From the NCBI GenBank assembly GCA_038109055.1, contig JAYNIM010000001.1:500631-564630 (forward strand): a stretch of DNA of 64,000 nt. Reading direction: 5' to 3'. Source of the DNA: a bacterium (GTDB taxonomy: Bacteria; Margulisbacteria; Marinamargulisbacteria; GCA-2716485; JAYNIM01). The stretch's first letter is position 1. Each line of letters opens with the position of its first letter. The notes under the pieces are model-generated. The model had not been told where the DNA came from and ran no database searches. It saw only the letters and a list, made by a program, of their open reading frames with translations. Positions 2,419-23,727 of the stretch are shown in pieces. A program made the translations under genes and the position numbers.

Positions 2419-2421
2419 TTT

Positions 2422-2931
2422 ATGTTAAAAATTATTGCTATTTTTTTTACCATTGGCTTGCATCTTTTGCTTTTTTTTATTTCAATCCCTCAACGATTTA
2501 TGACTAAAGATGTTGCGGTTAATCATGTCCCTATTCTTCTGCCTGTTACCTTGGTTTCCGAACAGAAACAACCACTTTTGCTTCTTGCAGATTCTGAATC
2601 ACCTAAGCAGGTGAAAGTCAAAGAAAAAAAGAAAATTAAACCTACTCAATTACCAGGAGATCGTAAATTTGCAACTATTTCCAAAAAAGTTCGCCCTGTT
2701 TATCCGAAAAAAGCCCTTAATTATGACTGGAAGGGTAAGATTGTTGTTCAAGCTACTATTAATCCTAAAGGAAAAGTCAGTCATATTAAAATTTTGAAGT
2801 CAACAGGCTATACAATTTTAGATCAATCTTTTGTTCGGACTGTCATGCAGTATTATGTATTTAAACCAAAGCGTGTCATGGGCAAAAATGTCTCGTCTTT
2901 TTTAAAATTGAGCTATGATTTTGACCTTTAA
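2422..2931 (+). CDS. tonB: TonB-family energy transducer
   Basis: N-terminal TM anchor, Lys/Pro-rich linker, and C-terminal TonB domain (PVYPKKALNYDWKGKIVVQATINPKGKVSHIKILKSTGYTILDQS). Operon context with exbBD. Confidence 0.75.
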   Translation: MLKIIAIFFTIGLHLLLFFISIPQRFMTKDVAVNHVPILLPVTLVSEQKQPLLLLADSESPKQVKVKEKKKIKPTQLPGDRKFATISKKVRPVYPKKALNYDWKGKIVVQATINPKGKVSHIKILKSTGYTILDQSFVRTVMQYYVFKPKRVMGKNVSSFLKLSYDFDL

Positions 2932-4855: not shown

Positions 4856-5349
4856 TTTCGAAGATGTTTATAAGGTTATTTTTGTGTATTTATATCTTAC
4901 TTTTGTGTCATTTTGTTCATGCGTTCAAAATCAATGATTTAAACTCTTCTGATCCAGCGTATAATGCCGTTAAATCATCTATTGATAACGGTTATTTATC
5001 TCTTTATAAGAATCGTACCTTTCAAGGAAAACGGCCAGTTACCCGAAAAGAGATGGCTATTCTTATCGAGCGTTTACTCACCCGTAAAGAAAATTCAACT
5101 CTAGACTCAGACAAAATCCAAGACTTGTCTCATTTGTCAGAAAATTTCAAGCCACTTCTTTCTAATCTTCAGGAAGAATATGATCTCTTACAGGGGCTCT
5201 TTTTTGGCATTCAAGAAGAAAATATTGCGCTACATCGTGATGTATCTGTCTTGCAAGACAAACATCGAAGCCAAGAGCTTAAATTAAAGCGTCAGCAATT
5301 ATGGATTTATGCGCTATGTGGTTTTTCGATGCTTAATCTTTTTCTTTAA
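4852..5349 (+). CDS. SLH-like domain / coiled-coil protein with N-terminal signal and C-terminal TM
   Basis: DPAYNAVKSSIDNGYLSLYKNRTFQGKRPVTRKEMAILIERLL resembles the S-layer-homology motif (..G...G..dgtF.P...vTR.E.A..l.r.l). The C-terminus is hydrophobic. Overlaps both neighbours by 1-4 nt. Confidence 0.45.
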   Translation: MISKMFIRLFLCIYILLLCHFVHAFKINDLNSSDPAYNAVKSSIDNGYLSLYKNRTFQGKRPVTRKEMAILIERLLTRKENSTLDSDKIQDLSHLSENFKPLLSNLQEEYDLLQGLFFGIQEENIALHRDVSVLQDKHRSQELKLKRQQLWIYALCGFSMLNLFL

Positions 5350-8849: not shown

Positions 8850-10280
8850 ATGTTTATGTCATTAAAACTAATGCCTATTCTATGTCATAGATTCGGCCTC
8901 TTTCATCATATATTACTATTTCGTTTAAGCTATATGTCTTTTTTTATGCTCCCCTGTCTATCAGCCTTTTTGTTATTTATCCCTTTTATTCTTCCCTCTT
9001 TATTCTATCTCCAATATCTTGCATTTCTTCCTTTATTTTATTTGCTTTCTTTTAGTAAATCTCGCTGTATTTTTGTTATTATATTTATATTCCTTTTTGC
9101 TTATTTGGCTTTACATCATTTATGGTTCTTTTTTCTTTCTCCCTGGATCCCTGTTTTTTATATTTTTATTTTTTATTTTTTTTATATTTTATCTTTAGCT
9201 CTTATTTTTTCTTTGCTGCTGTTTTTCTTACTTTATTGTAGAAAGACCTTTTTATTTTTTATCCCTTTTTGGATATTTTTTGAGTGGGTCTGTGAGCATG
9301 TTTTTTTAAATCCTAGTTTATATCTTGCATACGCTCAAGGAAAAAATTTATTTTTTAGTCAATGGGCCTCAATACTTCCTCTGCCTTTATTTGCTTTTAT
9401 TATTTTATTGCTTAATCTCCTTTTATTTTTTCTTTTCTCTGCACATCACATTAAATTAAGCGTTTGTATGATCCTTTGTGTACTATTTTTTATGCATGCT
9501 CCTGGTTTTATCAGACTACAAAATCAACCCCTTATTAAAGATTATATCTCGGTTGTTGCGATACATGCCCAACATAGTCAACATCAACGTTTAGACCCTA
9601 ATTTATCCCTGATGAACTTTCACGATTATCTTAGCTTGAGTCGTTCTATTTTAGATCAACAATCCGCTAATTTACTTATTTGGCCAGAAACTTCTACATC
9701 TTATTTTGTGATTGACGATCCTAGTATTAAGGAAACGCTTCAGTCTTTCTGTCTACGCTATTCCTGTGATCTAGTTTTGGGTAGCAAGCACGTCGATAAT
9801 GACTTATATTTTAATGGCGCTGCACATTTTCATTCAACTCAAAAAACACCTAATTTTGTTAATAAACATCGCCTTATGCCTATTGGTGAGTACTGGCCCT
9901 TTCCCTTTTTCACTACACGTTATCAACAACTTTTTTCAGTGCACAGCTATACAGCAACTGATTCTATTAAGCTATTTTCTATTTCTAACTACCCTATTGC
10001 TCTTGCTATATGTTTAGATGCCAGTTCTGTCTCTTTATTCCAATCTTTTAAACATCAAGGGGCTGTGGCAGCAATTGTTTTGGCTAATCTTGCTTGGTTT
10101 GAAGATCCATTTATCAAAGAACGGTTTTTTAGGTTCTGCCAATTTCGTGCCATTCAAATGGGTAAATCTCTTTATGTGTTGGCAAATTATGGCCGCTCAG
10201 CCTTATTCAACCCTTTTGGTCAAGCATCTATTGTTTCAGAGGACCGTTTTTCTCATCGCTTCCTTATGCCAATTTACTAA
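8850..10280 (+). CDS. lnt: Apolipoprotein N-acyltransferase
   Basis: Polytopic hydrophobic N-terminal half plus a CN-hydrolase domain with the E/K/C triad context LLIWPETS, NKHRLMPIGEYWPF, ALAICLDAS. Confidence 0.75.
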   Translation: MFMSLKLMPILCHRFGLFHHILLFRLSYMSFFMLPCLSAFLLFIPFILPSLFYLQYLAFLPLFYLLSFSKSRCIFVIIFIFLFAYLALHHLWFFFLSPWIPVFYIFIFYFFYILSLALIFSLLLFFLLYCRKTFLFFIPFWIFFEWVCEHVFLNPSLYLAYAQGKNLFFSQWASILPLPLFAFIILLLNLLLFFLFSAHHIKLSVCMILCVLFFMHAPGFIRLQNQPLIKDYISVVAIHAQHSQHQRLDPNLSLMNFHDYLSLSRSILDQQSANLLIWPETSTSYFVIDDPSIKETLQSFCLRYSCDLVLGSKHVDNDLYFNGAAHFHSTQKTPNFVNKHRLMPIGEYWPFPFFTTRYQQLFSVHSYTATDSIKLFSISNYPIALAICLDASSVSLFQSFKHQGAVAAIVLANLAWFEDPFIKERFFRFCQFRAIQMGKSLYVLANYGRSALFNPFGQASIVSEDRFSHRFLMPIY

Positions 10281-10285
10281 AAAAT

Positions 10286-11098
10286 CTATGTGCTTGTAGT
10301 TGTTAAATCAAATTCTTCATCTAATGATTCTAATGAAATTGGATCTGCATCTAAAAAATCATTTTCTTCAAATAAATCTTCTTCAATACTATTTTCTATT
10401 AATTCCTCATTTGTACCTTTGATACTTTGCATATTCTTTGTTTCTGTAAGCTTATTTAATTCTGTTGTGCTTTGAAAACTATCCTTACGTTCTTTATTTT
10501 GATAGGATTCTTCTCTGTTATTACTTTCTTCTTTGCTACCTACCTCTATCTCATCGTTTTCATAAAATTGCATATATAATGCGTTGAATATACTTTCATC
10601 TAAAGGCGTGTTTTTTACTTTAGTATTTAGTATTCTTGATTTTTCATTTTCAGAGTAATGTTTTAGAATATTTTCTTGTTCTTGAAGGTCTAATTTAGTC
10701 AAAAAAAAGGCGATTGTTTGTACCTGTTCATTTTTTAATATCTCGGCAATTTCACTGTAGCTTCTCTGTGACCTGTCTGGATGACTATCTGCTACCTCTA
10801 ACAGGTCATCATCTTCTTCCGAAGTTTTTTCTTCTTCCTCTTCTTCCTCTATGTCATTTAAAAAATTGTCTTCCTGTATAAGACTCATATCTTCTGGTTG
10901 CTCTAGTGTAATATGATCTACTTCTTCAATAAATTCTGCTATTAATTGGTTTAGCTCTTTTTGAGATGGCATTGGAGGTTGTTCTATTTTTAACAACCTA
11001 GTTAAAGTATCTTGCCGCATGTGCTTTAAAACAGCCTCTGCTTGATTACCTAAAACAGATACTATAACCTTTGCTTTTATATGATTTTCTAGTGTCAC
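10286..11098 (-). CDS. fliG: FliG-like rotor protein: N and middle domains only, with an acidic low-complexity C-terminus
   Basis: Position directly after fliF. The N-domain KAKVIVSVLGNQAEAVLKHMRQDTLTRLL resembles FliG (AAILL.SLGEE.AAEVLKHL.E.EI..L). The middle region EILKNEQVQTIAFFLTKLDLQEQENILKHYSE resembles the EHPQTIA...L motif. Residues ~180-270 are Glu/Asp/Asn-rich with no recognisable C-domain. Confidence 0.55.
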   Translation of the reverse strand: MTLENHIKAKVIVSVLGNQAEAVLKHMRQDTLTRLLKIEQPPMPSQKELNQLIAEFIEEVDHITLEQPEDMSLIQEDNFLNDIEEEEEEEKTSEEDDDLLEVADSHPDRSQRSYSEIAEILKNEQVQTIAFFLTKLDLQEQENILKHYSENEKSRILNTKVKNTPLDESIFNALYMQFYENDEIEVGSKEESNNREESYQNKERKDSFQSTTELNKLTETKNMQSIKGTNEELIENSIEEDLFEENDFLDADPISLESLDEEFDLTTTST

Positions 11099-12588
11099 GT
11101 AAGTACCTCTTCTTTTAATAATTCTTCTAGAGCAGCTGCTATATGTTCTGGGTTTGATGTTGCTTTTTTCTTTAAGTCATCTATATTTCTTTCTTTTTGA
11201 ATCTCTTCTTTTAGTTGTTCAAATTTAGTGACTTCGTTTTGCTTTTTATTCAAAGAGCTACTGCCCTTTTTTCTTGACTTTAAGAAAAAATAAACCAAAG
11301 TTAAGCCCATAGACAACATGCCTATAACACCCCAACTTTCAAAATATTCAAAGATAGTTTTACTTTCATCTTTATAAAAAGGGGCTTTATTAAGAAAAAT
11401 AATATCACGCCCATCTTGATAGCCTATAATTGCGGCTATGGTAGAAAACACCTCTATTTTTTTTGCATCATCCAGCACAATATCTTCGTTATATTCATCG
11501 ACTATTATACTCACCGTTGTTCGTTTAATTTCGGCACTGTTACCGTCTTTTGATGCAGTAATTTCTGCATTTGCAGCTACCTTAAATGAATTTCTAGGAA
11601 AAACTCCAGCCAATTGTTTATTAATTTTACTTAATATATTATTTTCAAAATTTTCTTTTATTGTGAACCATTGTTTAATATTCTCAAAATTTGGAAGTAT
11701 TGGCTGCAATTCTTTTATTTCATCTGATTTTTCTTCTTTCTTTTTATCTAAGAGTCTATCTTTCTCAAAGACTTTTATTTTTTGTTCATTTTTTATTTCA
11801 TCTAAAATACCATAGGACAACTCAGTTCCTTGTGTGTCTACAACTGTTATATTTTTAAGACTTAAGCTTTCTACGGCTTTTGCGACGAGCTGCATAATAC
11901 TATAAACCATGGTTGTGGTTAATGTTTTACCAGGTGTTTTTCTAACCAAAATACTTGCTGTTACTGGGGGCTGTTTTGATATAAATAGACGCTCTTTAGG
12001 CATTACAATTTGAACTTTAGCATCTTCGATCATTTCCAAACTTGTAATGACTTTTTCGAGTTCTCCAGACAAGGCTCTTAAATAACGTACTTTCTTATCA
12101 AATTCTGTGACGCCTAAAGTTTGAGTATTGTCTAATAACTCATAGCCTTTAACAGCACCTGAAGGCAAGCCCTTTGTTGCGAGTAATACCTTTGCAGTTT
12201 CTAATTTTTTACTATCGACTGATAAACTAAAATTCTTTCCTTTTTGTGCCAAGGTAAATGAAATATTTGCAAAGCTTAATTCTTTAATGACTTGTGAGAC
12301 TTGTGTCGCTGGTAATTGTGGGTATAGAACCAGGTATTTTATTTTCTTATCCCGCTTGGTTTTTTTCTTTGTTTGAGATTGTGCCTCATTTTTCCCCTTA
12401 TTTCCCTCTAACCCAATGTCATCATTATCTAAATTAACATAAAATAATAGGCCTCCTATTATTAAGGCTGTCATAATAATGGCAGCCATCCATATATTTT
12501 TTTTATGAAATAACCTAGATGTTTTATCTTGTGTTAAGTTATTTAAATCTTCTTCTAAATCATCAATTATCAAATTTTCTTCTGCCAT
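11095..12588 (-). CDS. fliF: Flagellar MS-ring protein FliF
   Basis: Two TM segments (IWMAAIIMTALIIGGLLFYV; VIGMLSMGLTLVYFFL) flank a YscJ/FliF-type periplasmic domain (SQVIKELSFANISFTL, AKVLLATKGLPSG, YLRALSGELEKVITSLEMIEDAKVQIVMP). Confidence 0.85.
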   Translation of the reverse strand: MAEENLIIDDLEEDLNNLTQDKTSRLFHKKNIWMAAIIMTALIIGGLLFYVNLDNDDIGLEGNKGKNEAQSQTKKKTKRDKKIKYLVLYPQLPATQVSQVIKELSFANISFTLAQKGKNFSLSVDSKKLETAKVLLATKGLPSGAVKGYELLDNTQTLGVTEFDKKVRYLRALSGELEKVITSLEMIEDAKVQIVMPKERLFISKQPPVTASILVRKTPGKTLTTTMVYSIMQLVAKAVESLSLKNITVVDTQGTELSYGILDEIKNEQKIKVFEKDRLLDKKKEEKSDEIKELQPILPNFENIKQWFTIKENFENNILSKINKQLAGVFPRNSFKVAANAEITASKDGNSAEIKRTTVSIIVDEYNEDIVLDDAKKIEVFSTIAAIIGYQDGRDIIFLNKAPFYKDESKTIFEYFESWGVIGMLSMGLTLVYFFLKSRKKGSSSLNKKQNEVTKFEQLKEEIQKERNIDDLKKKATSNPEHIAAALEELLKEEVLT

Positions 12589-12594
12589 AACTAC

Positions 12595-13173
12595 CTAAAT
12601 TTGCATTGATATTAATTCTTTGAATGTTTGAGATGCAGTTGAAATAACCGTGGTTGCAAAGCTTATTGCTAAGTTTAATTTTGTCGTTTCAATCGATACC
12701 TCCTCGATTGATACTTTCCCTTCTACATATTTTTGCATAAGGTCATTTACTCTAAATTCTAACTGGCTAACACTGTTTAATGATTTAACGGCTTGTTCAC
12801 TAAAATACTGAAAAGGTGTGATCTCTAGTGCATGGTCAAAATTTAAATATTCTAATTTTTCCTCTTCTTTCGTTTCTGCATCAAATAGCTCTTTTGTTCT
12901 TTTTTTTCTATCTTGAATTGTTAAATTTGGATCATTTGCAGTTGCTGCTTGTGCAATTAAGACATGTTGATTTAAGTTAATTGGGTTATTTTGTATTGTT
13001 ACTTGTGGTAGTGGATTTTTTTCCTGAGTTTTATTATCCATTATTCCATCTAACAATAACTTAAACTCATTTTTTATTTCTGGTTTTACGATATTTTGCG
13101 CAAAGGATGTTGCTGATGTTGTGGGGTTTACGTTGTTAAGAGGGTTTATATTAAGGGGACTTATATTACTCAT
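12595..13173 (-). CDS. fliE: Flagellar hook-basal body protein FliE with a long N-terminal extension
   Basis: Position between flgC and fliF. The C-terminal ~80 aa fit the FliE pattern, ending ...ASQTFKELISMQI (compare ..AYQEIMRMQV). Confidence 0.6.
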   Translation of the reverse strand: MSNISPLNINPLNNVNPTTSATSFAQNIVKPEIKNEFKLLLDGIMDNKTQEKNPLPQVTIQNNPINLNQHVLIAQAATANDPNLTIQDRKKRTKELFDAETKEEEKLEYLNFDHALEITPFQYFSEQAVKSLNSVSQLEFRVNDLMQKYVEGKVSIEEVSIETTKLNLAISFATTVISTASQTFKELISMQI

Positions 13174-13174
13174 A

Positions 13175-13630
13175 TTATTTCATTAACTCTATTGCACTTT
13201 GATACATTGATTTGCTAACTTTTAATGCGGTTATGTTTGCCTCATATACGGCCTCTGTAAATGTTAATGTCATCATCTCATTAGGCAGATTAACATTTGG
13301 ATAATAAAAATAACCATTTTCATCCGCTTGAGGTGCGGCTGGATCAAAATAACGCCCGAAAGGTTCTGTACTTCTTTTTATTCCAGTTACTTTTACCCCG
13401 TCTTTAAATTTTTCTAGTTGAATATATTTCTTTTGATAAGGTAATCCTGTTTCTTCGTCTTTTAAAGTATTTAAGTTTGCAACATTTTCTGCGATAATCA
13501 TCATTTTTGTTCTCTGTGCTAAAATCCCCGATATATTTATAGAAAATGAATCATCTAAATTTGAAACTGCATAGACTGAGTATGATACGTATACTGTTAT
13601 TATACATATAATTGCCGTTATTCTATTCAT
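13175..13630 (-). CDS. flgC: Flagellar basal-body rod protein FlgC
   Basis: ISGILAQRTKMMIIAENVANLNT (rod-protein N-motif) and C-terminal NVNLPNEMMTLTFTEAVYEANITALKVSKSMYQSAIEL. A ~25 aa hydrophobic N-terminal extension is present. Confidence 0.85.
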   Translation of the reverse strand: MNRITAIICIITVYVSYSVYAVSNLDDSFSINISGILAQRTKMMIIAENVANLNTLKDEETGLPYQKKYIQLEKFKDGVKVTGIKRSTEPFGRYFDPAAPQADENGYFYYPNVNLPNEMMTLTFTEAVYEANITALKVSKSMYQSAIELMK

Positions 13631-14043
13631 TATTGTTTACCTAGTGTCACTACTTTTCTTAAATTCTCTACGCGTTTTTTATAAAGTGTATATAACGCTT
13701 GTTGCCGTTTGTTGTTTTCTGCAATTTTTCCCATAAAATGTTCTATCATTACTTTCGAAAAGTATGCTTTATCTTCTGTTTCAACATTAAACAAGCGCTC
13801 TAATTCGGCTCTATCTTCTGGTAATAAAATTGGCCTAAATTTTGGTGTTGTGGCATTTGCTATGTTGTATGAATATATCGCATGTTTTTGGTTACTATAT
13901 TTTATAGCACGCTCTAATACCATCCCTGTTGAATCTTCAAGTATATGTCCTTTTGTTTTACTTTTTGCTATATCTAGTTTTTGTGCTAGTAAGGACGTAG
14001 TTAAACTTATAAATATAGCTATTACCAGTATTCTCGCTATCAT
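13630..14043 (-). CDS. flgB: Flagellar basal-body rod protein FlgB
   Basis: LERAIKYSNQKHAIYSYNIANATTPKF parallels FlgB L.LRA.RQ.VLA.NIANADTPGY. Gene order is flgB-flgC-fliE. Hydrophobic N-terminal extension present. Confidence 0.7.
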   Translation of the reverse strand: MIARILVIAIFISLTTSLLAQKLDIAKSKTKGHILEDSTGMVLERAIKYSNQKHAIYSYNIANATTPKFRPILLPEDRAELERLFNVETEDKAYFSKVMIEHFMGKIAENNKRQQALYTLYKKRVENLRKVVTLGKQ

Positions 14044-14052
14044 ATTTTTTGT

Positions 14053-14778
14053 TTATATATAAATATCTTTTTCTTCTAATTCTAAATATCTCTTAATTAA
14101 TTTTAACGCTTCCATATGGACTCTGCAAACTTTGCTTTTGGACACCTTTAATTTCTCTGCAACTTCGTTTTGTTTCATGTTACTTTGATAAATTAATTGT
14201 ATAACTTCTTTCTTAGCTGATTCTAATTTATTCACAATATTCCATATATTTGTTGTACTTTCAATATACGCTTCTTCTATATCTCTTCCACACGTATTGG
14301 CGGTAGAAAATTTCTCTAAATCGTTGGTATTTAGTAGATAGGATACGGATGACTGTGTCACGATCTCATTTAATGTTTTTTCAAAACTTTGTCTATTTGC
14401 TTTATTTTTATCGTCGAGTATATTCTCCGTAATCTCCATCATTTTTTCTTGTATATTTTCTCTATATCTTGCGTATTCAGCAGGATTCTTTTGTTTCCAT
14501 TCCAACCTCAAATTATCCATTATCTGACCTTGAATACGATAATATGCGTAGGTTTTAAAATTAGATTCTTTTTTTTCTTTGTATTGCACTTTCGCTTTAA
14601 TCAAGCCTTCAATACCCCAACTGATTAAATCCTCTTTTTCAACACCTGAAGGTATTTTAGACTTCATAAATATTTTACTCGCAACTCCTTTAACTAGAAT
14701 TAAATGGTCATCGATAAATGCTTGTGATACTTGCTGTTGTAATATCTCTTCTTTGCTATTCATATTTATGTTAGTCAA
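14053..14778 (-). CDS. fliA: Flagellar sigma factor FliA (sigma-28 family)
   Basis: Region 2 EDLISWGIEGLIKAKVQYKEKKESNFKTYAYYRIQGQIMDNLR. Region 4 HTH MKQNEVAEKLKVSKSKVCRVHMEALKLIKRYL. Embedded in the flagellar operon. Confidence 0.8.
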   Translation of the reverse strand: MTNINMNSKEEILQQQVSQAFIDDHLILVKGVASKIFMKSKIPSGVEKEDLISWGIEGLIKAKVQYKEKKESNFKTYAYYRIQGQIMDNLRLEWKQKNPAEYARYRENIQEKMMEITENILDDKNKANRQSFEKTLNEIVTQSSVSYLLNTNDLEKFSTANTCGRDIEEAYIESTTNIWNIVNKLESAKKEVIQLIYQSNMKQNEVAEKLKVSKSKVCRVHMEALKLIKRYLELEEKDIYI

Positions 14779-15406
14779 TTAATTTTTGTTTTGTTTTGTG
14801 TATATATATGATATCTCTTTCTTCATTATAATCTATAGTATCAGATACGATTAAAAAAACAGATTCTTCTATTTTTTCATCTAAACTATTCTCTTGTGCT
14901 AATATACTTATACTCTTTTTTTGAATAGTGCTATTATTTTTATTTAACTCTACTCTTGAGACTATTCTAAAGGATTTTTCTGGGAATGCTTCTCTCAACT
15001 TTCTTTTTACTCTATTGGATAAATTGTTTTCTATATGTTCTTTCCGTGAGAGTGATGCATCTTTGGGCAAAAATTTTTCCTCAAACTTTAATAAATCCAT
15101 TTTTGCAAGTTTATCTGCCATTTCTTTAGCTAGCAGATCATTGATCATGTCACTTTGTGTCACATCTATATAATCGATATCTTCATCTATAAATATTTCC
15201 ATTTTTTTAAAAGCAGGTTCCGTTAAAATCTTCTTGATAAAAAAAGACTGCATAAACTGGACTGCTTCTTTTCTTGTTCTGGGTTTTTTATTATTATACA
15301 AACTTGAAGAATAATGATTAGCCGCTAATGGTATTCCTTCGTAACTCATTGATGGAATAGCATAACTAATAGCAATAATACCTATAATTATTATAATTTT
15401 GTTCAA
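14771..15406 (-). CDS. Flagellar-operon protein in the flgJ position: signal peptide, rod-binding-like segment and a FliF-like C-terminal segment
   Basis: Lies between flgI and fliA. KEAVQFMQSFFIKKILTE resembles the FlgJ rod-binding motif (..QFE..F...ML..M). The C-terminus (FPEKSFRIVSRVE...IDYNEERDIIYIHK) resembles FliF 11095-12588 (FPRNSFKVAANAE...IGYQDGRDIIFLNK). Confidence 0.4.
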   Translation of the reverse strand: MNKIIIIIGIIAISYAIPSMSYEGIPLAANHYSSSLYNNKKPRTRKEAVQFMQSFFIKKILTEPAFKKMEIFIDEDIDYIDVTQSDMINDLLAKEMADKLAKMDLLKFEEKFLPKDASLSRKEHIENNLSNRVKRKLREAFPEKSFRIVSRVELNKNNSTIQKKSISILAQENSLDEKIEESVFLIVSDTIDYNEERDIIYIHKTKQKLID

Positions 15407-16476
15407 ATGATTTCAATGTTTGCTATCAGTGCGCCTGCTTCTTTTAGTGCTTGTATAATTGAAATTAAATCTCTTGGAGAAGCACCAATTTCATTTAAAG
15501 TATCTACTAAGCTTGATAGTGTTTCGTTTGATTTTAAATATACTAACTTTTTCTTCTCTTCATCAATTTCTAACTGATTTTGCTGATCTGATATTGCACC
15601 TGCTTGTGGTTCTGTAATTCGAATAGATACAGCCCCATGTGTCAAGGCTACAGGGCTTAAACGCACCATTTCTCCAATTACAATGGTACCTGTTCTTTCA
15701 TTAATGACAATTTTTGCTGATTGGTCAGGCTTTACTGAAATATTTTCTAATTTTGCAATGGTACTAATTAAATTTGCTGAATTCAAATCTGTTAATGGTA
15801 TTTTAATTTGTCTAGCATCTAATGCTTTTGCACCTAAAAAGCCCTCATCATGGATGGCATTAACTGCACGATCTATAGTTATAAAATTTGAATCATTTAA
15901 AACAATGGAGATATTGTGCACATCTGTAAAGGTGACGGGAACTTCTTTTTCTACAATGGCCCCATCTGTGATAATTCCAACTGTTGGTTTGTTTTTAGCA
16001 TACATAATGGTACTTGAACGCTGTGCTGCACCTCCCACTACAACCGAACCTTGGCCAACAGCATAAACTCTCATATCAGCACCTTTCAAGGGGGTCATCA
16101 ATAAGGTACCTCCATCTAAACTAGATGCATCTCCGAGTGCTGATACCGTTAGTGAAATCCGTTGTCCTGACTTTACAAATGCGGGTAGGGTTGCTGTCAC
16201 CATCACGGCTGCCGTGTTTCGTATATTACCAACACTACCTACTTGTACACCCATTTTAACTAATAAATTTCTCAGTGCAGTTGGTGTAAAAAAGGTATTT
16301 CGACTGTCACCAGTACTTTTCAATCCAACCACTAAGCCAAATCCAATTAATTGGTTATCTCTCATTTCTACAATTTTTGAAATATCTTTTAACCTTACTT
16401 CTACAGCAAAGCTTGCTGTAGTAAAGCTAAATAATACTAGTAGTAACAATGCTCGTTTCATTTTTAAAATACCCAA
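15403..16476 (-). CDS. flgI: Flagellar P-ring protein FlgI
   Basis: Signal peptide followed by RLKDISKIVEMRDNQLIGFGLVVGLKSTGD and full-length FlgI-like sequence, ending ...LKEAGALIANIEII. Confidence 0.9.
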   Translation of the reverse strand: MGILKMKRALLLLVLFSFTTASFAVEVRLKDISKIVEMRDNQLIGFGLVVGLKSTGDSRNTFFTPTALRNLLVKMGVQVGSVGNIRNTAAVMVTATLPAFVKSGQRISLTVSALGDASSLDGGTLLMTPLKGADMRVYAVGQGSVVVGGAAQRSSTIMYAKNKPTVGIITDGAIVEKEVPVTFTDVHNISIVLNDSNFITIDRAVNAIHDEGFLGAKALDARQIKIPLTDLNSANLISTIAKLENISVKPDQSAKIVINERTGTIVIGEMVRLSPVALTHGAVSIRITEPQAGAISDQQNQLEIDEEKKKLVYLKSNETLSSLVDTLNEIGASPRDLISIIQALKEAGALIANIEII

Positions 16477-17072
16477 TTAAATATCCTACTTATTATTCCT
16501 GGATTCTGCTTGGCTGCAACTGGTCCCCCTCTACCGCTTACTGAAACCTCAGCTTTTGCAATTTGATACGAAAAAATAGTATTCTTTGGAGTCACATCTG
16601 CAGGCCGCACAATCCCAGATACTCGAATAGTTTCGATGTCATGATTCACTTTAACCTTGTGTTCTCCCACTACAAATAAATTCCCGCTCTTTAACACTTC
16701 TGTCACAATTGCCGTTATAATTGCCTTTACGTTGCTTTTTCTCGTCGTTTGTCCATTGCCTTGATATCTATCACCCCCGCCTATAGAGATATCTCGTTTT
16801 TTCCTCACTCGTTCATTGCCTAATAAATTAGCCACTTGATCCCAATTGTCTGCAAGTGATGAGGTTAGTGAGGTTGTTTTTCCTGAAGAGGTGCTCGCCT
16901 GTTGTACAGCGGAGGTGGATTCGGATACGTAGATAGTAACGATATCCCCCACTGAAATTCTTCGTCGCGATGGTTGGTATATGCCTTCACTATAGGTTCT
17001 CCATAATGAATCTGCCCCAATAGATGTTGTTACTAAGATTAATAAACTAATCAATATAAATATTTTTTTCAT
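16464..17072 (-). CDS. flgH: Flagellar L-ring protein FlgH
   Basis: Signal peptide, SLW....RR..VGDIVTIYVSE, then ITAIVTEVLKSGNLFVVGEHKVKVNHDIETIRVSGIVRPADV, the typical FlgH core. Confidence 0.85.
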   Translation of the reverse strand: MKKIFILISLLILVTTSIGADSLWRTYSEGIYQPSRRRISVGDIVTIYVSESTSAVQQASTSSGKTTSLTSSLADNWDQVANLLGNERVRKKRDISIGGGDRYQGNGQTTRKSNVKAIITAIVTEVLKSGNLFVVGEHKVKVNHDIETIRVSGIVRPADVTPKNTIFSYQIAKAEVSVSGRGGPVAAKQNPGIISRIFNWVF

Positions 17073-17784
17073 CTATCACTTTTCCTTTTAATCGTTTTAG
17101 TGTTGATAATTTTGATGTTACCGGTATGTACCCACCTATTTGACCATCCGCTAATGCTTGTCCATCAACTTTTATTTGCCCCCATTTTTTATTTATTAAA
17201 ATTGATATAGGATCACCTTTTTGTATTGCTGGTTTTTCTTCTATGGCTAAATAATGTACCTGTGTATTTTTAGGAATACTACGTTTTGCTATTTTTCCTA
17301 TCATTTCTTCCTTAGTAAATATATAATTCTGCAGGGTTGATAATTTTGAATAAATTAATTTTTCTTTCATGATTAAATCAGACTCTGTAATCATTTTACC
17401 TCGTTGAATCAAGTGCTTTGTGACAGGCATTTTTGTGGTTGCTTCTATTTTTAATAAAAGGGTCTGTCTTTCTAGAAGAGTCCCCTGCCGGTCATAGAAA
17501 AAAATCGGCTGTATTTGAGTCCCCAGTAAATCGTTGATTTTAGGGTCTGGACATTTAAAATAACTGGCTTTTTCAGGTATATCTAATTTTGTTAAATCAA
17601 TTTTGAATGTCATTTTAAAGGTCATTAATTCTGCATTTATATTTCCCAGAACATGCTCTAATTTTTGTCGATAGACAGTTCTGACTTCTTTTTTGATATC
17701 TGCTAGACTCACCGCAGCATGAATCGTATTTATCGCTAGACTCACAATCAAACTAATAATAAAAAAAAGCCTACTTAATGTCAC
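17047..17784 (-). CDS. flgA: Flagellar P-ring assembly chaperone FlgA
   Basis: Signal peptide and C-terminal SAF/FlgA pattern (IAKRSIPKNTQV....IQKGDPISILINKKWGQIKVDGQALADGQIGGYIPV). Position upstream of flgH/flgI. Confidence 0.7.
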   Translation of the reverse strand: MTLSRLFFIISLIVSLAINTIHAAVSLADIKKEVRTVYRQKLEHVLGNINAELMTFKMTFKIDLTKLDIPEKASYFKCPDPKINDLLGTQIQPIFFYDRQGTLLERQTLLLKIEATTKMPVTKHLIQRGKMITESDLIMKEKLIYSKLSTLQNYIFTKEEMIGKIAKRSIPKNTQVHYLAIEEKPAIQKGDPISILINKKWGQIKVDGQALADGQIGGYIPVTSKLSTLKRLKGKVIDEKNIYID

Positions 17785-18568
17785 TTCCAGCCTTTAGCAT
17801 ATCATCGGATGCTTTCATTGCTTTAATAACCGTTTCAAAGGAACGTTGACACATCAGCATTTCCATCATTTCAGAGATAATATCTACATTTGAAAATTCC
17901 AATGATCGTTGCCTGATAGACCCCATGCCCTGTTCACCCGGTATAATTAATTGTGGATCCCCAGAGCTTTCTGTTTCTTGCATTAAATTTTGGCCAATAT
18001 CTTTTAAACCTTCTGGATTCATAAACTTTGCTAAGACCATCTGTCCAATTTCTTGTTGTTGAGTATCTCCATCTAATAAGGCAAAAATTCGGCCTTCTTG
18101 ATTCACAATAATTTCTCTTGCTTCTAAAGGGATAGTTAATGGTGGATCTAAGGGATGTCCGCTAGAATTTAATACTCTTCCTTGACTGTCTACATGAAAA
18201 TTTCCTGCTCGACTATAAGCGGCGCTTCCATCTGGCAATTGAAACTGAAACATACCATTCCCTTCGATTGCCATATCCATTTGCCTGTTTGTTACTTCGA
18301 TTGTTCCAGTACTAAAGTTCTTTGTAATACCCACGAACCGAACACCTTGACCAAACTCGATATATTTTTTTCTACGTTTGCTGCTACCTGTTTCTTCATC
18401 AGACTCCGTCACAGCTCTTTCAAAAATTAATGGAAACAAACTTTCCATCTCTAAGCGTCTTTCCTTATATCCTGGTGTTTGTGCATTTGAGATATTATTT
18501 GTAATAACCTGCATTTTTCGTTGAAACGAATATAATGCTGATTTTGCCATATGTAATTGAGATAACAT
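17771..18568 (-). CDS. flgG: Flagellar distal rod protein FlgG
   Basis: MAKSALYSFQRKMQVITNNISNAQTPGYK N-motif and C-terminal LEFSNVDIISEMMEMLMCQRSFETVIKAMKASDDML. Confidence 0.9.
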   Translation of the reverse strand: MLSQLHMAKSALYSFQRKMQVITNNISNAQTPGYKERRLEMESLFPLIFERAVTESDEETGSSKRRKKYIEFGQGVRFVGITKNFSTGTIEVTNRQMDMAIEGNGMFQFQLPDGSAAYSRAGNFHVDSQGRVLNSSGHPLDPPLTIPLEAREIIVNQEGRIFALLDGDTQQQEIGQMVLAKFMNPEGLKDIGQNLMQETESSGDPQLIIPGEQGMGSIRQRSLEFSNVDIISEMMEMLMCQRSFETVIKAMKASDDMLKAGSDIK

Positions 18569-18586
18569 AATTAAACTCCTTTTATT

Positions 18587-19393
18587 TTAATTTGGTGCGG
18601 CAATTTGTGTCGCTGTATTGGCTGATCGTGCCAATACTTTAAGAACCTTTGCATTTGATTGATACCCATTTGTTGCATAGGTTATATCTCCTACTAAGGC
18701 TTTTACTACATTATTTTCTTCTATATGACCTTGTACAACTTTATAGTACTCAACCCCACTCAAAATTTCAGCCTCTTCTACTAGTACAAATACGGATCCA
18801 TTCAGTGAATTGAGCTTTTGCATTTCTTTATAGGAGGCAAATACCGCTACTTTTATACGATCTACTTCTTCACCATCTACGTATATCATTCCAGATCGTG
18901 ACACAACAACATCGCCTTTAGGCAAGTATATTGGCCCTTTATCACCTAATACGGGATAATTTCCGGCAACAGTGACTAAACGGTCACTCCCATCTCTCGT
19001 GAAGCGCCCATCTCGGGTATAACCCAGAGTTGTTTTTAATTGTATAACAAAAAAACCTTTACTCATCGCATCTATGTAAAAATCTAATGGTCTATGTGTT
19101 TCAACGACCGGACCTGCTCGCCAACGATAAAAAGGAATGGCATCTATTCGTTTCTCTCCATTCTTATCAATCATTCTTGAATTAAACGCGCCTGTTTCGA
19201 TAAAGCCTGGTGTGTTTACATTCATGGTGTAAAACAACCAATTACTCCACTGAATTTGAAAAGCCCTCATTGCTTGCATACTTCCATTAGCGGCAATATC
19301 TTGAATCTCACCATAATCCTCATAAGAAGAAAGGTTACTCGTTATGATAAGTAGACATACTATCAAGGTCTTTATTTTATTAATACCGTTCAT
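18587..19393 (-). CDS. flgF: Flagellar proximal rod protein FlgF
   Basis: NVNTPGF N-motif, GYTRDGRFTRDGSDRLVTVAGNYPVLG core, C-terminal IEENNVVKALVGDITYATNGYQSNAKVLKV. Upstream of flgG. Hydrophobic ~35 aa N-terminal extension. Confidence 0.7.
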   Translation of the reverse strand: MNGINKIKTLIVCLLIITSNLSSYEDYGEIQDIAANGSMQAMRAFQIQWSNWLFYTMNVNTPGFIETGAFNSRMIDKNGEKRIDAIPFYRWRAGPVVETHRPLDFYIDAMSKGFFVIQLKTTLGYTRDGRFTRDGSDRLVTVAGNYPVLGDKGPIYLPKGDVVVSRSGMIYVDGEEVDRIKVAVFASYKEMQKLNSLNGSVFVLVEEAEILSGVEYYKVVQGHIEENNVVKALVGDITYATNGYQSNAKVLKVLARSANTATQIAAPN

Positions 19394-19408
19394 TTATCTC
19401 TATTCTCA

Positions 19409-19780
19409 TTATTTTCTTTTTAGTTTCTTATTAATCTTATTTCGTTTATCCGATAATTTTTCAAGTTGATACGCAAAGGCTAACACCTCTGCTATTATAG
19501 CATATAATTTTGATGGTATATGTTGATTCAATTCTAATTTAGACAACAAATTACTTAATACGGGATCTTCATACAGAGGTATTTTGTGATCTTCTGCAAT
19601 ATGTAAAATCATTTCAGCAATTGAGGCTTTACCAGATGCAACGATTTTTGGGGCCTTGTCTTTTTCAATATCATATTTTATTGCGACTGCTTTTAACTTT
19701 TCTTTTTTGGGTAGATTTAACTGATCAATACGTTTCTTAAAGTTGATCTTATGTTTCTTCTGATTCTCGTTTGCCATCAT
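19409..19780 (-). CDS. FlhB C-terminal-domain-like protein (EscU/YscU/FlhB cytoplasmic domain paralogue, YlqH-type)
   Basis: KAVAIKYDIEKDKAPKIVASGKASIAEMILHIAEDHKIPLYEDPVLSNLLSKLELNQHIPSKLYAIIAEVLAFAY matches the FlhB_C pattern (A.AL.Y......AP.VVAKG....A..I...A.E..IP......L...L......I.......VAE...). Confidence 0.75.
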   Translation of the reverse strand: MMANENQKKHKINFKKRIDQLNLPKKEKLKAVAIKYDIEKDKAPKIVASGKASIAEMILHIAEDHKIPLYEDPVLSNLLSKLELNQHIPSKLYAIIAEVLAFAYQLEKLSDKRNKINKKLKRK

Positions 19781-20994
19781 GCCTCTGTACTAATATGTGT
19801 TAACCTATCTAAATCAAAATTTGGACATAACAATTCTTTTACCGGGATCTTTTTATCCATATATTTCACACCTTTAACTTTATAGTTAATGGCTTCCATT
19901 TGCTTTATTAAATCTGGAACCAAACTTGAAATTATCCGTTTTGTTTCTCCGTCTTTGCTATTAAACGTATATATTAGCGTATTCTCTATGACATTGATCA
20001 CAATACTTAATTCCCCAATATTTTCTGTTTCAAACTTAATGATCATGGTTGTTTTATCTTCATTTATCTGTGAGTTTTGTTTATTATTTCGTTTTTGAAT
20101 GAGGATATCCATATTATTTACTGGCGAGGCTAATAAATTTGGTATTTGCCAAAAATGAAACAAGTCTGCCTTAATCATAAACTGTGACTCTTTGGATAAG
20201 ACCAAATAAGCTAAACTATGATCAATATATTTTTCTAGTGATTTTTGCGTTTTCTCAAAAACTTCTTTGAGGCTTTGTTGTTGATATACATCTTTTATTT
20301 GAGTCAGTATTTTTTTATCCATCCCTTTTAGAAGACTCAAAAACAGTTTCGACTCTTTCATTAACCCAACATATTTTTCAACTTTAAAATTCAGCATGTT
20401 CTTTTTATCAAATCTGTAAAATTGTAACTTCTCATCTATTGCCGCTACTATCGCCGCTAAATGTTGCGTAAAAGCAGGACTCAATCCATCCTTAGAGGCG
20501 TGCATCGCTGCTTGTAATGCTTGTAAGTTTTGCTGTAATTGTTTGACTGTCCCTGTTAAATCTAATTCATTTGATAAAAATTGTTTTAACACAGAAATAC
20601 TTTTACCGTTCCCTTTTAAATTTTTAGCAATTGATAAGACGATAGACTCTAAATCCTTTGATGACGTCTTTCCTTTCATCAAATTATCAATTATTTCAAA
20701 ATAATCTTGATTCAAAGGAACTCCATAAGAAAGCATCGTCATGCCAATCCTCATATTATCAACATTGGGACTCTTACCAAAACTTAAGAGTTGATTCATG
20801 ATGTCATCTTTCGAATAGGGCTGTCGTTTACTTTCTGTTTTTTTTGTTGTTGAACGCACATCTTCTGATTGTGCTGTATGAATAGATGATACATTCGTTT
20901 CGTGACTTGTCTTTGATAGGGATCTACTTTGAGATTCCTCCGGAAGCTTGGGAGGTTGCGCACGATGTGATGAACCGGGAACTGATAAATTCAT
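19777..20994 (-). CDS. fliK: Flagellar hook-length control protein FliK-like
   Basis: Disordered Ser/Thr/Pro-rich N-terminus. The C-terminal block IIKFETENIGELSIVINVIENTLIYTFNSKDGETKRIISSLVPDLIKQMEAINYKV fits the FliK C-domain pattern (L.P..LG.L.V.I.......F.......R..L...L..L...L). First gene of the flagellar operon. Confidence 0.55.
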   Translation of the reverse strand: MNLSVPGSSHRAQPPKLPEESQSRSLSKTSHETNVSSIHTAQSEDVRSTTKKTESKRQPYSKDDIMNQLLSFGKSPNVDNMRIGMTMLSYGVPLNQDYFEIIDNLMKGKTSSKDLESIVLSIAKNLKGNGKSISVLKQFLSNELDLTGTVKQLQQNLQALQAAMHASKDGLSPAFTQHLAAIVAAIDEKLQFYRFDKKNMLNFKVEKYVGLMKESKLFLSLLKGMDKKILTQIKDVYQQQSLKEVFEKTQKSLEKYIDHSLAYLVLSKESQFMIKADLFHFWQIPNLLASPVNNMDILIQKRNNKQNSQINEDKTTMIIKFETENIGELSIVINVIENTLIYTFNSKDGETKRIISSLVPDLIKQMEAINYKVKGVKYMDKKIPVKELLCPNFDLDRLTHISTEA

Positions 20995-21056: not shown

Positions 21057-21905
21057 CTACGAAATTAATTTCTGATAACCTTCTGCGATACGTAATGTCA
21101 GATGTTTTGACTTTAGTTGTGGATAGCCCTTCACATGTTGAATAGAGACAACACCTCTTAAGGCATTTGTCAAAAATATTTCGTCAAAGTCATTTAACTC
21201 TGATAGTGTTACGGGCCTTAGGATAATCTCTATATTTAATTTATCTTGGTTATTTAGCAAGAACTGGCGAGTGACGCCTGTTAAGACGCAATTCGATTTA
21301 GGGGTTATCACTTGTTGCCCCTTAATAAAGAATAAGTTTGCTAAGGCTGTTTCTAAAATATAGTTGTCTGCATCATACAATAGGACATCATCATAATCTT
21401 CTTCACTAAAGCGCAATTCCAACCAATTTTTCATCCATGCCATGGTTTTTAAACAATCTAATGGCGTCCGTTGAAACGATTCTTGCTTTACGTCCAATTT
21501 GATTCCATCTTTTAAACTTTCTTTTTCATAAGGCCGTAATACCATAAGGAGCATTGGCTTTTGTTCACTTTTTTTAACCAGTAATCCCGAACGGTTCCCT
21601 GCACTTAAGTAGATATTTAACACAGCTTCTTTAGCCTTGTTCTTTTTAATAAGAACGTCTACAGCTTCGCATATTGCGTCTTGATCCCAGTTGATATTGA
21701 TATCGAGCATTAAACTACTGCGACGTAATCGTGTACAGTGATCTCTGATAAGTCTTGGCCGACCTTCTTTCACTAAAATACTTTCAAAAAGGCCGTAACC
21801 ATATAAAAAACCCATATCTAAATATGGAAAGCCGAGACTTTCTTGAGGTTTAGTTTCTAAATTGACTGATACATAGGGGTAAACGTCTTGTTTTATTTGT
21901 TCCAT
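21057..21905 (-). CDS. Class IV (fold type IV) PLP enzyme: aminodeoxychorismate lyase / branched-chain or D-amino-acid aminotransferase family
   Basis: GYGLFESILVKEGRPRLIRDHCTRLRRSSLML and C-terminal GVTRQFLL...EIFLTNALRGVVSI match the family pattern. Confidence 0.65.
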   Translation of the reverse strand: MEQIKQDVYPYVSVNLETKPQESLGFPYLDMGFLYGYGLFESILVKEGRPRLIRDHCTRLRRSSLMLDININWDQDAICEAVDVLIKKNKAKEAVLNIYLSAGNRSGLLVKKSEQKPMLLMVLRPYEKESLKDGIKLDVKQESFQRTPLDCLKTMAWMKNWLELRFSEEDYDDVLLYDADNYILETALANLFFIKGQQVITPKSNCVLTGVTRQFLLNNQDKLNIEIILRPVTLSELNDFDEIFLTNALRGVVSIQHVKGYPQLKSKHLTLRIAEGYQKLIS

Positions 21906-21933: not shown

Positions 21934-23727
21934 TTATTTGTCTAATTTTAACACCGATAAAAAGGCTTCTTTTGGAACCTCAACAGACCCAATTTGTTTC
22001 ATTTTCTTTTTGCCTTTTTTTTGTTTTTCTAATAATTTCCGTTTTCTGGAAATATCTCCTCCATAACATTTTGCTGTGACATTTTTTCGCATCGCAGAGA
22101 TGGTTTCACGACAGATTACTTTTGCACCAATAGCCGCTTGTAAAGGGACTTCGAACATTTGTCGTGGGATCAATGTCTTGAGTTTTTCTACAATTTTTCG
22201 CCCCAGAGTTTCGGCATTTTGCGCGTGACAAATAAATGATAACGCATCAACGGGTTCGGCTTTGATCAAAATATCAACCTTGACGAGTTTCGTTTCGACA
22301 TACCCTTTAAAGCTATAATCCATACTGGCATAGCCTTTTGTGGCTGATTTCAGTCTGTCAAAAAAGGCATGAATGAGTTCGTTTAAGGGTATATCAACAT
22401 GCAGTACTTGTCGCGTTCCATCTAAAAGTTCTGATTTTTTGTACAGGCCTCTGTTCTCTTTAACCAAGTCGTTTACAACCCCCAAATAATTATTGGGCGT
22501 GACGATTGCCAGCTCCATCAAGGGTTCTTTCATGGTTTCAATCTCTGTTACCTGCGGAAATTGACTTGGATTTTCTACTTTGATGAGCGTCCCATCTGTT
22601 TTTCTGATTTCATAGGTGACGTTTGGGGCGGTGATAATTAGTTCGATTCCAAACTCGCGTTGGATACGCTCTTGGGTAATTTCCATATGTAGTAGACCTA
22701 AAAACCCACAACGAAAACCAAAGCCCAAGGCCTGTGACGACTCCACCTCGTATTGGAGTGCGGCATCATTTAATTTTAATTTTTCTAAGGCTTCTTTTAA
22801 ATCGTTATAATCTTGGGTATCAACGGGATAAAAACCCGAAAACACCATGGGTTTGACCTCTTTATAACCAGGCAAGCTTTGGGGGCTTGGATGCTGAGCA
22901 TCGGTAATGGTATCCCCAATTTTGGCATCTGCAATGGTTTTGATATTACAAATCAAATACCCTACTTCGCCAGCTTCTAAGCTATTTAATGGCGTCATTT
23001 TGGGTTTAAAGCAGCCTAATTCTAATACCTCGTACTGTTTATCACTGGCCATAAACATGATTTTCTGCCTTTTACTTAACACTCCATTTATTACACGCAC
23101 ATAAGCAATGACTCCGCGATATTCATCATAGTGGGCATCATATACTAGGGCTTGTAGGGTTGTATTTACGTCGCCTTTTGGACTGGGGATTTGGGTAACC
23201 ACTTTTTCTAAAATATCACTAACACCTTGCCCTGTTTTTGCTGAACACTGCACACAGTCTTCGGCTGGAATGCCTAATACCAATTCGATATCGTCGAGTA
23301 CCCGTTCGGGCTCGGCTGAGGGCAGGTCGATTTTGTTTATTAGAGGGATAATTTCAAGGTCGTGTTCGAGGGCCAAATAAAAATTGGCCAAGGTTTGCGC
23401 CTCAATCCCTTGGCTCGCATCTACTAATAATAAAGCCCCTTCACATGCTGCTAAAGAGCGCGAGACTTCGTAGGTAAAATCCACATGACCAGGCGTATCG
23501 ATCAAATTTAATTGGTAGTCATGTCCATCCTTGGCCTTGTACGTCATTCGTACGGCTTGCATTTTGATGGTAATCCCACGCTCACGCTCCAAATCCATAC
23601 CATCTAGGACCTGGGCTTTCATTTCGCGCTGACTTAAGGTTTGTGTTTCTTCGATCAGGCGATCTGATAGCGTTGATTTCCCATGATCAATATGAGCAAT
23701 AATCGCGAAGTTCCGTGTATTTTTCAT
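21934..23727 (-). CDS. lepA: Elongation factor 4 (LepA)
   Basis: [37 protein letters not shown] GTPase motifs and full-length LepA colinearity, including the C-terminal [24 protein letters not shown]. Confidence 0.95.

Follow-up and report, generated by a model that had tools for sequence, protein, structure and literature searches.

A conserved basal-body operon that stands apart from other flagellar genes in Marinamargulisbacteria

To what kind of apparatus does a flagellar basal body belong when the genes around it encode no hook, filament, switch, motor or export gate? The question is raised by a 64,000-nt stretch of DNA (hereafter the window; positions 500,631 to 564,630 of contig JAYNIM010000001.1, assembly GCA_038109055.1) from a bacterium of the Marinamargulisbacteria, in which a 14-gene flagellar operon lies at 10286–20994 on the minus strand. 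A preliminary description of the window had likened this set to the basal bodies retained by the endosymbiont Buchnera and had suggested a repurposed, possibly non-rotating structure, with the caveat that the missing genes may lie elsewhere. Flagellar genes are commonly dispersed. Our comparison of the operon with its counterparts leads us to read it, with a probability of roughly 70%, as a conserved single-copy, envelope-spanning module of the Marinamargulisbacteria flagellar apparatus, whose missing genes are at other loci in a dispersed organisation typical of the class.

Layout of the operon in the window and across the class

The operon consists of 14 co-oriented open reading frames (ORFs) covering 10.7 kb in the order fliK, flhB-CTD (C-terminal domain), flgF, flgG, flgA, flgH, flgI, flgJ-like, fliA-like, flgB, flgC, fliE, fliF and short fliG. 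Neighbouring ORFs overlap by no more than 26 nt or are separated by no more than 18 nt; with the shorter starts of public gene callers, the intergenic gaps are 2–18 nt. The TTG starts of the longest ORFs of flgI (15403–16476) and the sigma-factor gene (14053–14778) probably lie upstream of the true ones: in public gene calls the proteins have 352 and 236 amino acids (aa), respectively, and the apparent overlaps become gaps of 2 and 7 nt. Judged by this spacing, the 14 genes probably form one transcription unit. Scans for sigma-70 promoters and terminators gave counts at or below shuffle expectation, sigma-28 consensus promoters in the window were not above chance (0–2 matches versus 0.3–2.4 expected), and tRNA and Rfam searches returned no match. 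An identical 10.6-kb contig is present in Logan run SRR26337569.

The operon is flanked by lnt (8850–10280, plus strand) and by a class IV aminotransferase gene (21057–21905, minus strand), which is followed by the gene for LepA (21934–23727, minus strand). Outside the operon, the window has 36 ORFs of 100 aa or more, and Pfam and NCBIfam scans assigned none of them to a flagellar family. The gene list, strand, tight packing and flanks originally described are thus borne out by the ORF list and the family searches, as is the statement that the 64 kb hold no hook, filament, switch, motor or export-gate gene.

The same gene order recurs in about 35 Candidatus Marinamargulisbacteria genomes, as found by BLAST of the 14 proteins against the ORFs of fetched loci, with flgF sometimes duplicated. 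Public gene calls for locus L003, for a 576-kb Margulisiibacteriota contig and for a 152-kb Joint Genome Institute (JGI) contig agree with this order. A scan of the GTDB species representatives with a FlgI alignment identified 37 loci with FlgI proteins 38–63% identical to that of the window, so that these representatives include no close relative; the loci are mostly titled Candidatus Marinamargulisbacteria or Margulisiibacteriota, or belong to unclassified or mislabelled metagenome-assembled genomes. The genomes carrying the operon are mostly planktonic, from marine and freshwater settings. Placement of the window is consistent with this distribution, as its LepA is 66–69% identical to those of Marinamargulisbacteria single-amplified genomes and the LepA–aminotransferase–operon–lnt synteny is common to both; we conclude that the window stems from a divergent Marinamargulisbacteria-like lineage. 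The LepA, aminotransferase IV and lnt flanks are likewise common to loci L007, L011, L013 and L016, and a tetratricopeptide repeat (TPR) gene appears among the flanks in the JGI contig and L003. The flank genes that recur or were sampled all have housekeeping roles or carry no annotation (among them LepA, PabB/PabC-like, lnt, TPR protein, SecA, PrfB, RNase III, glutamate dehydrogenase and methyltransferase), and no other flagellar gene was found within about 10 kb of the operon in any checked flank. The same layout across some 35 genomes, together with these housekeeping-only flanks, indicates that in this class the operon is, as a rule, isolated from the other flagellar genes.

By FlgI, the closest sequences are a EukProt COSAG01 contig (79%) and L003, a metagenome contig from ENA (70%). 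Amino-acid identity between the window and L003 ranges from 28% to 85%, with FlgG at 85% and FlgC at 77%, and intact ORFs at such identities point to purifying selection. The closest non-identical FlgI (P0002, 79%) comes from a eukaryote data set of EukProt, on contig COSAG01_NODE_519, the name of which looks like a single-cell co-assembly, so a marine protist may live in association with, or feed on, a relative of the present bacterium. In the deep-branching loci L027, L037, L038 and L039, the short fliG-like gene is immediately followed on its strand by secA (15867–18389 in L027), and then by prfB, a DUF5693 gene and the RNase III gene.

Where the remaining flagellar genes may lie is suggested by 'Ca. 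Ruthmannia eludens', an intracellular Marinamargulisbacteria symbiont of Trichoplax H2 (PMC6784892). It is the sole described relative with a full gene table, and the comparison uses only the RAST names in the transcriptome table of that study (supplement 3). One block of this table, in the order aminotransferase, FliK (hypothetical), FlhB, FlgF, FlgG, hypothetical, FlgH, FlgI and hypothetical (peg.311–303), mirrors the first half of the operon, and a second block running from the sigma factor through a hypothetical protein, FlgC and a further hypothetical protein to FliF (peg.520–514) mirrors its second half; the sigma counterpart is named 'sigma factor for flagellar operon'. Several of the operon's counterparts are transcribed in Ruthmannia. 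FlgC, FlgG, FlgH, FlgI and FliF are each listed once, so these are Ruthmannia's only rod and ring genes. Elsewhere in its genome are FliG–MotA–MotB (peg.420–422), FliM, FliN, FliP, FliQ, FliR, FlhB and FlhA (peg.1251–1260), FliI (peg.232), FlgE (peg.763) and a second FlgF (peg.944). By analogy with Ruthmannia, the present bacterium most likely encodes its hook, switch, stators and export gate away from this operon. The earlier caveat that missing genes may lie elsewhere is upheld, at the strength of this analogy, by the Ruthmannia table and the clade-wide layout.

Gene assignments and the parts they would supply

All 14 genes are on the minus strand. The first encodes a FliK-like protein (405 aa; 19777–20994) with the hook-length-control Pfam domain PF02120 (Flg_hook/T3S4) near its C-terminus, at residues 305–376 (32.7 bits; cut-off 29.8) and a polar, disordered-looking N-terminus without a signal peptide; its orthologues (396–458 aa) are also encoded by the first gene of the operon in relatives. 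The second product (123 aa; 19409–19780) is a stand-alone FlhB C-terminal domain of the FlhX/YlqH type. Its residues 31–102 match positions 262–334 of the 335-position Bac_export_2 model, which is only the portion of FlhB after the NPTH cleavage site, and it has no membrane domain. Its best NCBIfam model is TIGR00789 (flhB_rel), at 89.1 bits (E = 1.6e-25), below the cut-off of 117.35.

Next come the genes for rod and rings. The FlgF-like proximal rod protein (268 aa; 18587–19393) matches Pfam LlgE_F_G_D1 and, below the cut-off, TIGR02490 (82.8 versus 178.5 bits). The distal rod protein FlgG (265 aa; 17771–18568) contains three Pfam rod domains, has a polar N-terminus of the canonical kind and exceeds the cut-off of TIGR02488 (260.2 versus 252.75 bits). 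FlgA (245 aa; 17047–17784), the P-ring assembly chaperone, was recognised by Pfam ChapFlgA (69.2 bits) and TIGR03170 (72.8 versus 54.65) and bears a Sec signal, as is usual for FlgA. The L-ring protein FlgH (202 aa; 16464–17072) scores 146 bits with Pfam FlgH and up to 120 bits with the NCBIfam FlgH models. The P-ring protein FlgI scores 358 bits with Pfam FlgI and 357.5 with NF003676 (cut-off 300); public gene callers start it 5 codons later, and sequence P0001 is 100% identical over these 352 aa. The product of the following ORF (211 aa; 14771–15406) gave no Pfam or NCBIfam match and has no enzymatic domain. We regard it as similar to the N-terminal, rod-binding part of FlgJ from its position and two short motifs, F.Q.FFIKK.. 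and ..LAKQD.LGLKK, which are found in the ORF after flgI at about 35 loci and parallel the canonical FlgJ of the outgroup loci L040 and L042.

The second half of the operon starts with a FliA/WhiG-like, sigma-28-type sigma factor (236–241 aa), which contains Pfam Sigma70_r2 and r4 and has TIGR02479 (FliA_WhiG) as its best NCBIfam model (102 bits, below the 189.6 cut-off). The FlgB-like proximal rod protein (137 aa; 13630–14043) matches TIGR01396 at residues 39–108 (profile positions 4–74) with 24.8 bits (cut-off 59; E = 2e-5), and its rod motif YNIANATTP is kept in orthologues. FlgC (151 aa; 13175–13630), also a proximal rod protein, matches TIGR01395 with 102.6 bits (cut-off 102.1) over residues 28–151 (profile 3–137). 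FliE (192 aa; 12595–13173) is recognised by Pfam at residues 124–192 (26 versus 22.4 bits) and falls below the cut-off of TIGR00205 (22.9 versus 30). It bears no signal peptide; its N-terminal extension (about 120 aa) is polar, with many N, Q and P residues. FliE orthologues are 103–252 aa long, the extension being present in most of the clade (171–252 aa) and missing from the deepest-branching relatives (103–146 aa).

The MS-ring protein FliF (497 aa; 11095–12588) scores 164 bits with Pfam YscJ_FliF and 143.2 with TIGR00206 (cut-off 129.75), and matches Salmonella FliF residues 51–221 (E = 3e-24). Its architecture comprises ring-building motifs (RBMs) 1 and 2, a shorter RBM3 region, a second membrane segment and a C-terminal helix (..NPEHIAAALEELLKEE.. 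/ ..NPEHIAAALEELL..), which we judge from its sequence to be of the FliG-binding type. The last gene (VW378_02265; 270 aa; 10286–11098) encodes a truncated FliG-like protein, with a Pfam FliG_M match at residues 116–158 and a weak FliG_N match at residues 9–63.

By these matches, FliF, FlgI, FlgH, FlgA and FlgG are clear basal-body components. FlgF, FlgB and FliE fall below the NCBIfam cut-offs, and each is still the top match and in the correct position; the four names flgJ-like, flgB, fliA and fliG-like rest on weak or positional evidence. Low scores such as those of FlgB, FliE (23–26 bits) and the FliG-like protein (14–30 bits), the latter also truncated and rich in low-complexity acidic sequence, are what a decaying relic in a reducing genome might display, with the missing genes lost and the others becoming pseudogenes. 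Yet the roughly 35 genomes keep all 14 ORFs intact, closely packed and in the same order, the weakly scoring proteins, the short FliG-like one included, keep their length and motifs across the clade, FlgG and FlgC remain highly similar to those of the nearest relative, and Ruthmannia transcribes several counterparts. The conservation of all 14 ORFs largely refutes decay, which we consider hardly credible.

As part of a dispersed flagellar apparatus, the operon would supply the MS ring (FliF), FliE, the proximal rod (FlgB, FlgC and FlgF) and the distal rod (FlgG), the P ring (FlgI) and L ring (FlgH) along with the chaperone FlgA, and a rod-cap-like protein (FlgJ-N-like). It would also provide a FliK-like/FlhX-like pair, proteins that in known systems act on the export-specificity switch of FlhB, a sigma-28-like factor that would serve late genes, and a short FliG-like protein that could dock on the C-terminus of FliF. 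The presence of this sigma factor implies that there are late genes to transcribe. The module would not be self-sufficient, as the N-termini of FlgG, FliE and FliK resemble those of type III substrates; the export gate, the ATPase, the switch of FliM/N and full FliG, the stators and the hook would be encoded at other loci, as in Ruthmannia. The module would probably act as part of a working (rotating) motor.

Rod-protein leaders and the torque-less FliG-like protein

A dispersed basal-body operon is in itself ordinary. Its unusual, clade-wide features are signal-peptide-like leaders on rod proteins and the FliG-like protein without a torque domain. In canonical flagella, the rod proteins have no Sec signal peptide and are exported by the type III route. 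Here, the N-termini of FlgB, FlgC, FlgF and the FlgJ-like protein display a basic residue, a hydrophobic stretch of 10–15 residues and a small-residue site, often ..A|Q, and the conserved rod N-helix starts directly after this leader. The extensions measure about 30 aa in FlgF, 35 aa in FlgB and 25 aa in FlgC. Consistently, the family models align from residue 28 of FlgC, residue 39 of FlgB and about residue 35 of FlgF, in which residue 56 corresponds to TIGR02490 position 22.

We scored leaders in orthologues by a Kyte–Doolittle hydrophobic window of at least 2.2 over 11 aa, with a crude rule for n-, h- and c-regions as a second test. A hydrophobic leader was present in 83% of 29 FlgB, 90% of 31 FlgC and 94% of 31 FlgF orthologues and in 11 of 11 BLAST-detected FlgJ-like ones, level with the true Sec substrates FlgA, FlgH and FlgI (86–94%), and was absent (0%) from FlgG (0/38), FliK (0/24), FliE, FlhB-CTD, sigma and FliG-like orthologues. 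The crude rule was satisfied by 68–77% of the leader proteins, 66–88% of the true Sec substrates and 0–17% of the controls. A FlgC search of 1.84 billion protein representatives placed the leader in a wider setting: among the best 150 matches, 139 contained the rod motif, at the canonical position 20–29 in 109 of them and at position 40–59 behind a hydrophobic leader in about 22, which were concentrated in the top 30.

These N-termini suggest that FlgB, FlgC, FlgF and the FlgJ-like protein are exported by Sec, which would be a departure from the canonical rule that all axial rod proteins are type III substrates lacking a Sec signal. The searchable literature contained no description of Sec-dependent rod proteins. 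In the deep-branching loci L039, L041, L027, L033 and L036–L038, FlgB and/or the FlgJ-like protein have no leader and the FlgC leader is kept, a pattern that suggests stepwise acquisition of the leaders within the clade.

The leaders could be taken to mean that the operon encodes a self-contained periplasmic rod-and-ring device, in which Sec-exported FlgB, FlgC, FlgF, FlgA, FlgH, FlgI and FlgJ-like proteins assemble on FliF from the periplasm without a type III gate and the truncated FliG does no more than cap FliF. The frequency of the leaders (83–100% of orthologues), the constant position of the operon alone among housekeeping genes and the secA gene directly after it in four deep-branching relatives would all fit such a device. 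However, FlgG, FliE and FliK are leaderless in every orthologue and would thus still depend on type III export, a FliK or an FlhX-like protein is meaningful only where the gate contains FlhB, and Ruthmannia combines FlhA, FlhB, FliPQR and FliI with only one rod and ring set. A gate-free device is accordingly very unlikely.

The second unusual feature is the product of the last gene. Canonical FliG is composed of N, M and C domains, docks on FliF and carries the stator-facing torque helix in its C domain. The FliG-like protein departs from this three-domain form: it comprises a FliG_N (FliF-binding) module, an acidic disordered linker, the first half of FliG_M (FliM-binding) and an acidic tail, with scores of 22 bits for FliG_N and 29.8 bits for FliG_M, and Pfam and NCBIfam searches detected no FliG_C domain in it. 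A profile of 20 orthologues matches Salmonella FliG at residues 4–157 of 328 (E = 2.5e-11) and nothing beyond, which upholds the atypical FliG of the preliminary description. The two conserved blocks correspond to the N domain and the first M-domain helices, with (Q/E)KPQ in place of EHPQ. Supporting this assignment, the top Foldseek matches of an AlphaFold model are all FliG or FliG-M, with weak E-values and root mean square deviations of 2.0–2.2 over about 68 columns (2.0 for 4qrm_D). The model is confident only at residues ~111–180, and the predicted local distance difference test (pLDDT) score is below 50 at residues 183–270; disorder is predicted for the linker and for the final 90 residues. 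Orthologues are 140–271 aa long, and the two-module form with its variable acidic linker is kept clade-wide. In protein searches, the single sequence found only itself, and the 20-sequence profile found 7 short proteins and no full-length FliG; the literature searched contained nothing relevant on C-terminally truncated FliG paralogues.

By analogy with Ruthmannia, in which a separate FliG adjoins motAB, FliG may have been duplicated or split in the clade. If the motAB-adjacent FliG is full length, the short protein would be an accessory FliF-docking paralogue; if it contains the C domain only, FliG would be split.

Taken together, the leaders and the short FliG allow a more far-reaching reading, in which some axial components no longer use the type III pathway. 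FlgB, FlgC, FlgF and the FlgJ-like protein would cross by Sec and be added to the rod from the periplasm, FliE, FlgG and FliK would pass the gate, and FliF would be paired with a torque-less FliG-like protein that retains its FliF- and FliM-binding portions, giving a basal body that is differently assembled and possibly differently driven or non-rotating. We put this forward tentatively, as a possibility that we consider somewhat doubtful. If the leaders are functional, they amount to a natural experiment on rod assembly and on the evolutionary movement of substrates between secretion pathways. The clade includes intracellular symbionts of early-branching animals (Ruthmannia in placozoans), and whether the structure is a propeller, an exporter or an anchor bears on symbiosis.

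Neighbouring genes and comparison with known systems

Beyond the operon, the window encodes a 1040-aa UCH/USP and NADAR protein (27080–30202), a 1312-aa NADAR protein (31118–35056), and a leucine-rich repeat (LRR) protein and a YadA-head repeat protein among 60326–61087 and 47418–49751. This eukaryote-like or adhesin-like set hints, from its sequence, at a host-associated lifestyle, and no link to the flagellar operon was found. The suggestion that the neighbouring UCH/NADAR proteins are tied to flagellar secretion gained no evidence. A search for sigma-28-type promoters ahead of the effector-like genes found none. A 1.55-kb direct repeat (29450–30999 and 34304–35853; 99.9% identical, 4854-nt spacing) spans the NADAR-containing C-termini of both giant proteins and the next gene, of the DUF481 outer-membrane type (30250–31017 and 35104–35871); it stems either from duplication in the very recent past or from an error of assembly.

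On the other side of the operon, a MotA_ExbB/ExbD pair (1406–2418) was considered as hidden stators and rejected, since its best models are TolQ/TolR/ExbBD and a TonB_C protein is encoded next to it. These genes (MotA_ExbB with TolQ as its best model, ExbD/TolR and TonB_C; 1406–2931) belong to a Tol/Ton-like cluster at 1406–5349, which also holds a 646-aa protein without a family match and a small SLH-domain protein.

Several observations weigh against a module of an ordinary flagellum. Three rod proteins and the cap-like protein resemble Sec substrates, which canonical rod assembly does not predict, and the FliG-like protein adjoining fliF has no torque domain. None of the 21 flagellar entries of Ruthmannia is named flagellin, FlgK, FlgL, FliD, FliS, FliH or FlgD, an absent RAST name being weak evidence for an absent gene. 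The placement of the missing genes elsewhere is by analogy with one relative and its RAST names. Finally, the UCH and LRR proteins of the window are in keeping with life in association with a host, where motility might be lost.

Some of these points would also suit a filament-less, repurposed hook-basal body of the Buchnera kind, with the gate and perhaps the switch and stators encoded elsewhere and no flagellin or hook-associated proteins, serving as an exporter or envelope anchor in a host-associated bacterium. The names missing from the Ruthmannia table, the eukaryote-like UCH/USP, NADAR and LRR proteins, the closest FlgI in a eukaryote-derived assembly and the torque-less FliG-like protein are compatible with it. 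Moreover, PMC6784892 reports no flagella for Ruthmannia; flagella in Marinamargulisbacteria are discussed neither there nor in the Margulisbacteria genomics paper PMC6349859. Against it, the Ruthmannia MotA and MotB genes adjoin a RAST-named FliG, and the sigma-28-like factor and the FliK-like ruler are kept in the ~35 mostly planktonic genomes, which fits a complete late-gene programme. The promoter result for the effector-like genes and the limited weight of a missing RAST name count in the same direction, and a survey (PMC7018530) lists flagellins for the phylum 'Candidatus Margulisbacteria'. Overall, we hold a filament-less structure to be unlikely and retain the dispersed flagellar module as the preferred reading.

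The comparison with Buchnera aphidicola itself is instructive. Buchnera reportedly keeps export-gate and switch genes without motAB and fliA. The present bacterium resembles it in having a basal-body-rich set and being possibly host-associated, and in that no flagellin is named in the related Ruthmannia. It differs in that a FliA/WhiG-like gene lies in the operon, MotA and MotB are named in Ruthmannia and the layout is common to many planktonic relatives; the Buchnera-type absence of motAB and of a late-gene sigma factor would not apply. The comparison gives no support to the earlier proposal of a Buchnera-like structure lacking switch, motor, gate and hook, as Ruthmannia has FliG–MotA–MotB, FliM/N, FliPQR, FlhAB, FliI and FlgE elsewhere.

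Compared with the Salmonella and Escherichia coli loci (flgA, flgBCDEFGHIJ, fliE and fliFGHIJK), the operon shares the families FliF, FliE, FlgB/C/F/G, FlgA, FlgH, FlgI, a FlgJ-like cap and FliK, and the local orders flgF-G-(A)-H-I-J and flgB-C / fliE-F-G are recognisable; FlgG, FlgI, FlgC and FliF reach the NCBIfam cut-offs. In contrast to those loci, flgD and flgE are missing between flgC and flgF, as are fliH, fliI and fliJ after fliG, fliA is embedded in the operon, and FlgB, FlgC, FlgF and the FlgJ-like protein bear Sec-type leaders. The FliG here is without the second half of the M domain and the whole C domain, FliE is about 90 aa longer, and FlgJ has no muramidase or peptidase domain.

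The 123-aa second product resembles FlhX (HP1575) and YlqH in consisting of the post-cleavage FlhB C-terminal subdomain only, although its score is under the TIGR00789 cut-off. A fliK2-flhX pair has been described in Pseudomonas putida as a separate FliA-dependent unit (bioRxiv 10.1101/2021.08.29.457346), and Helicobacter pylori FlhX, as cited in that preprint, partly replaces FlhB. As in P. putida, the FlhB-CTD gene here directly follows the gene for the FliK C domain; unlike in P. putida, the FliK/FlhX-like pair heads a structural operon.

The closest likeness is to Ruthmannia, which FlgI and LepA similarity and synteny place in the same bacterial class as the present genome. Both have the same genes in the same order, including the aminodeoxychorismate-lyase/class IV aminotransferase neighbour and the short FlhB. 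The difference lies in their arrangement: the block is split in two in Ruthmannia (peg.303–311 and peg.514–520), whereas here it forms a single 10.7-kb unit.

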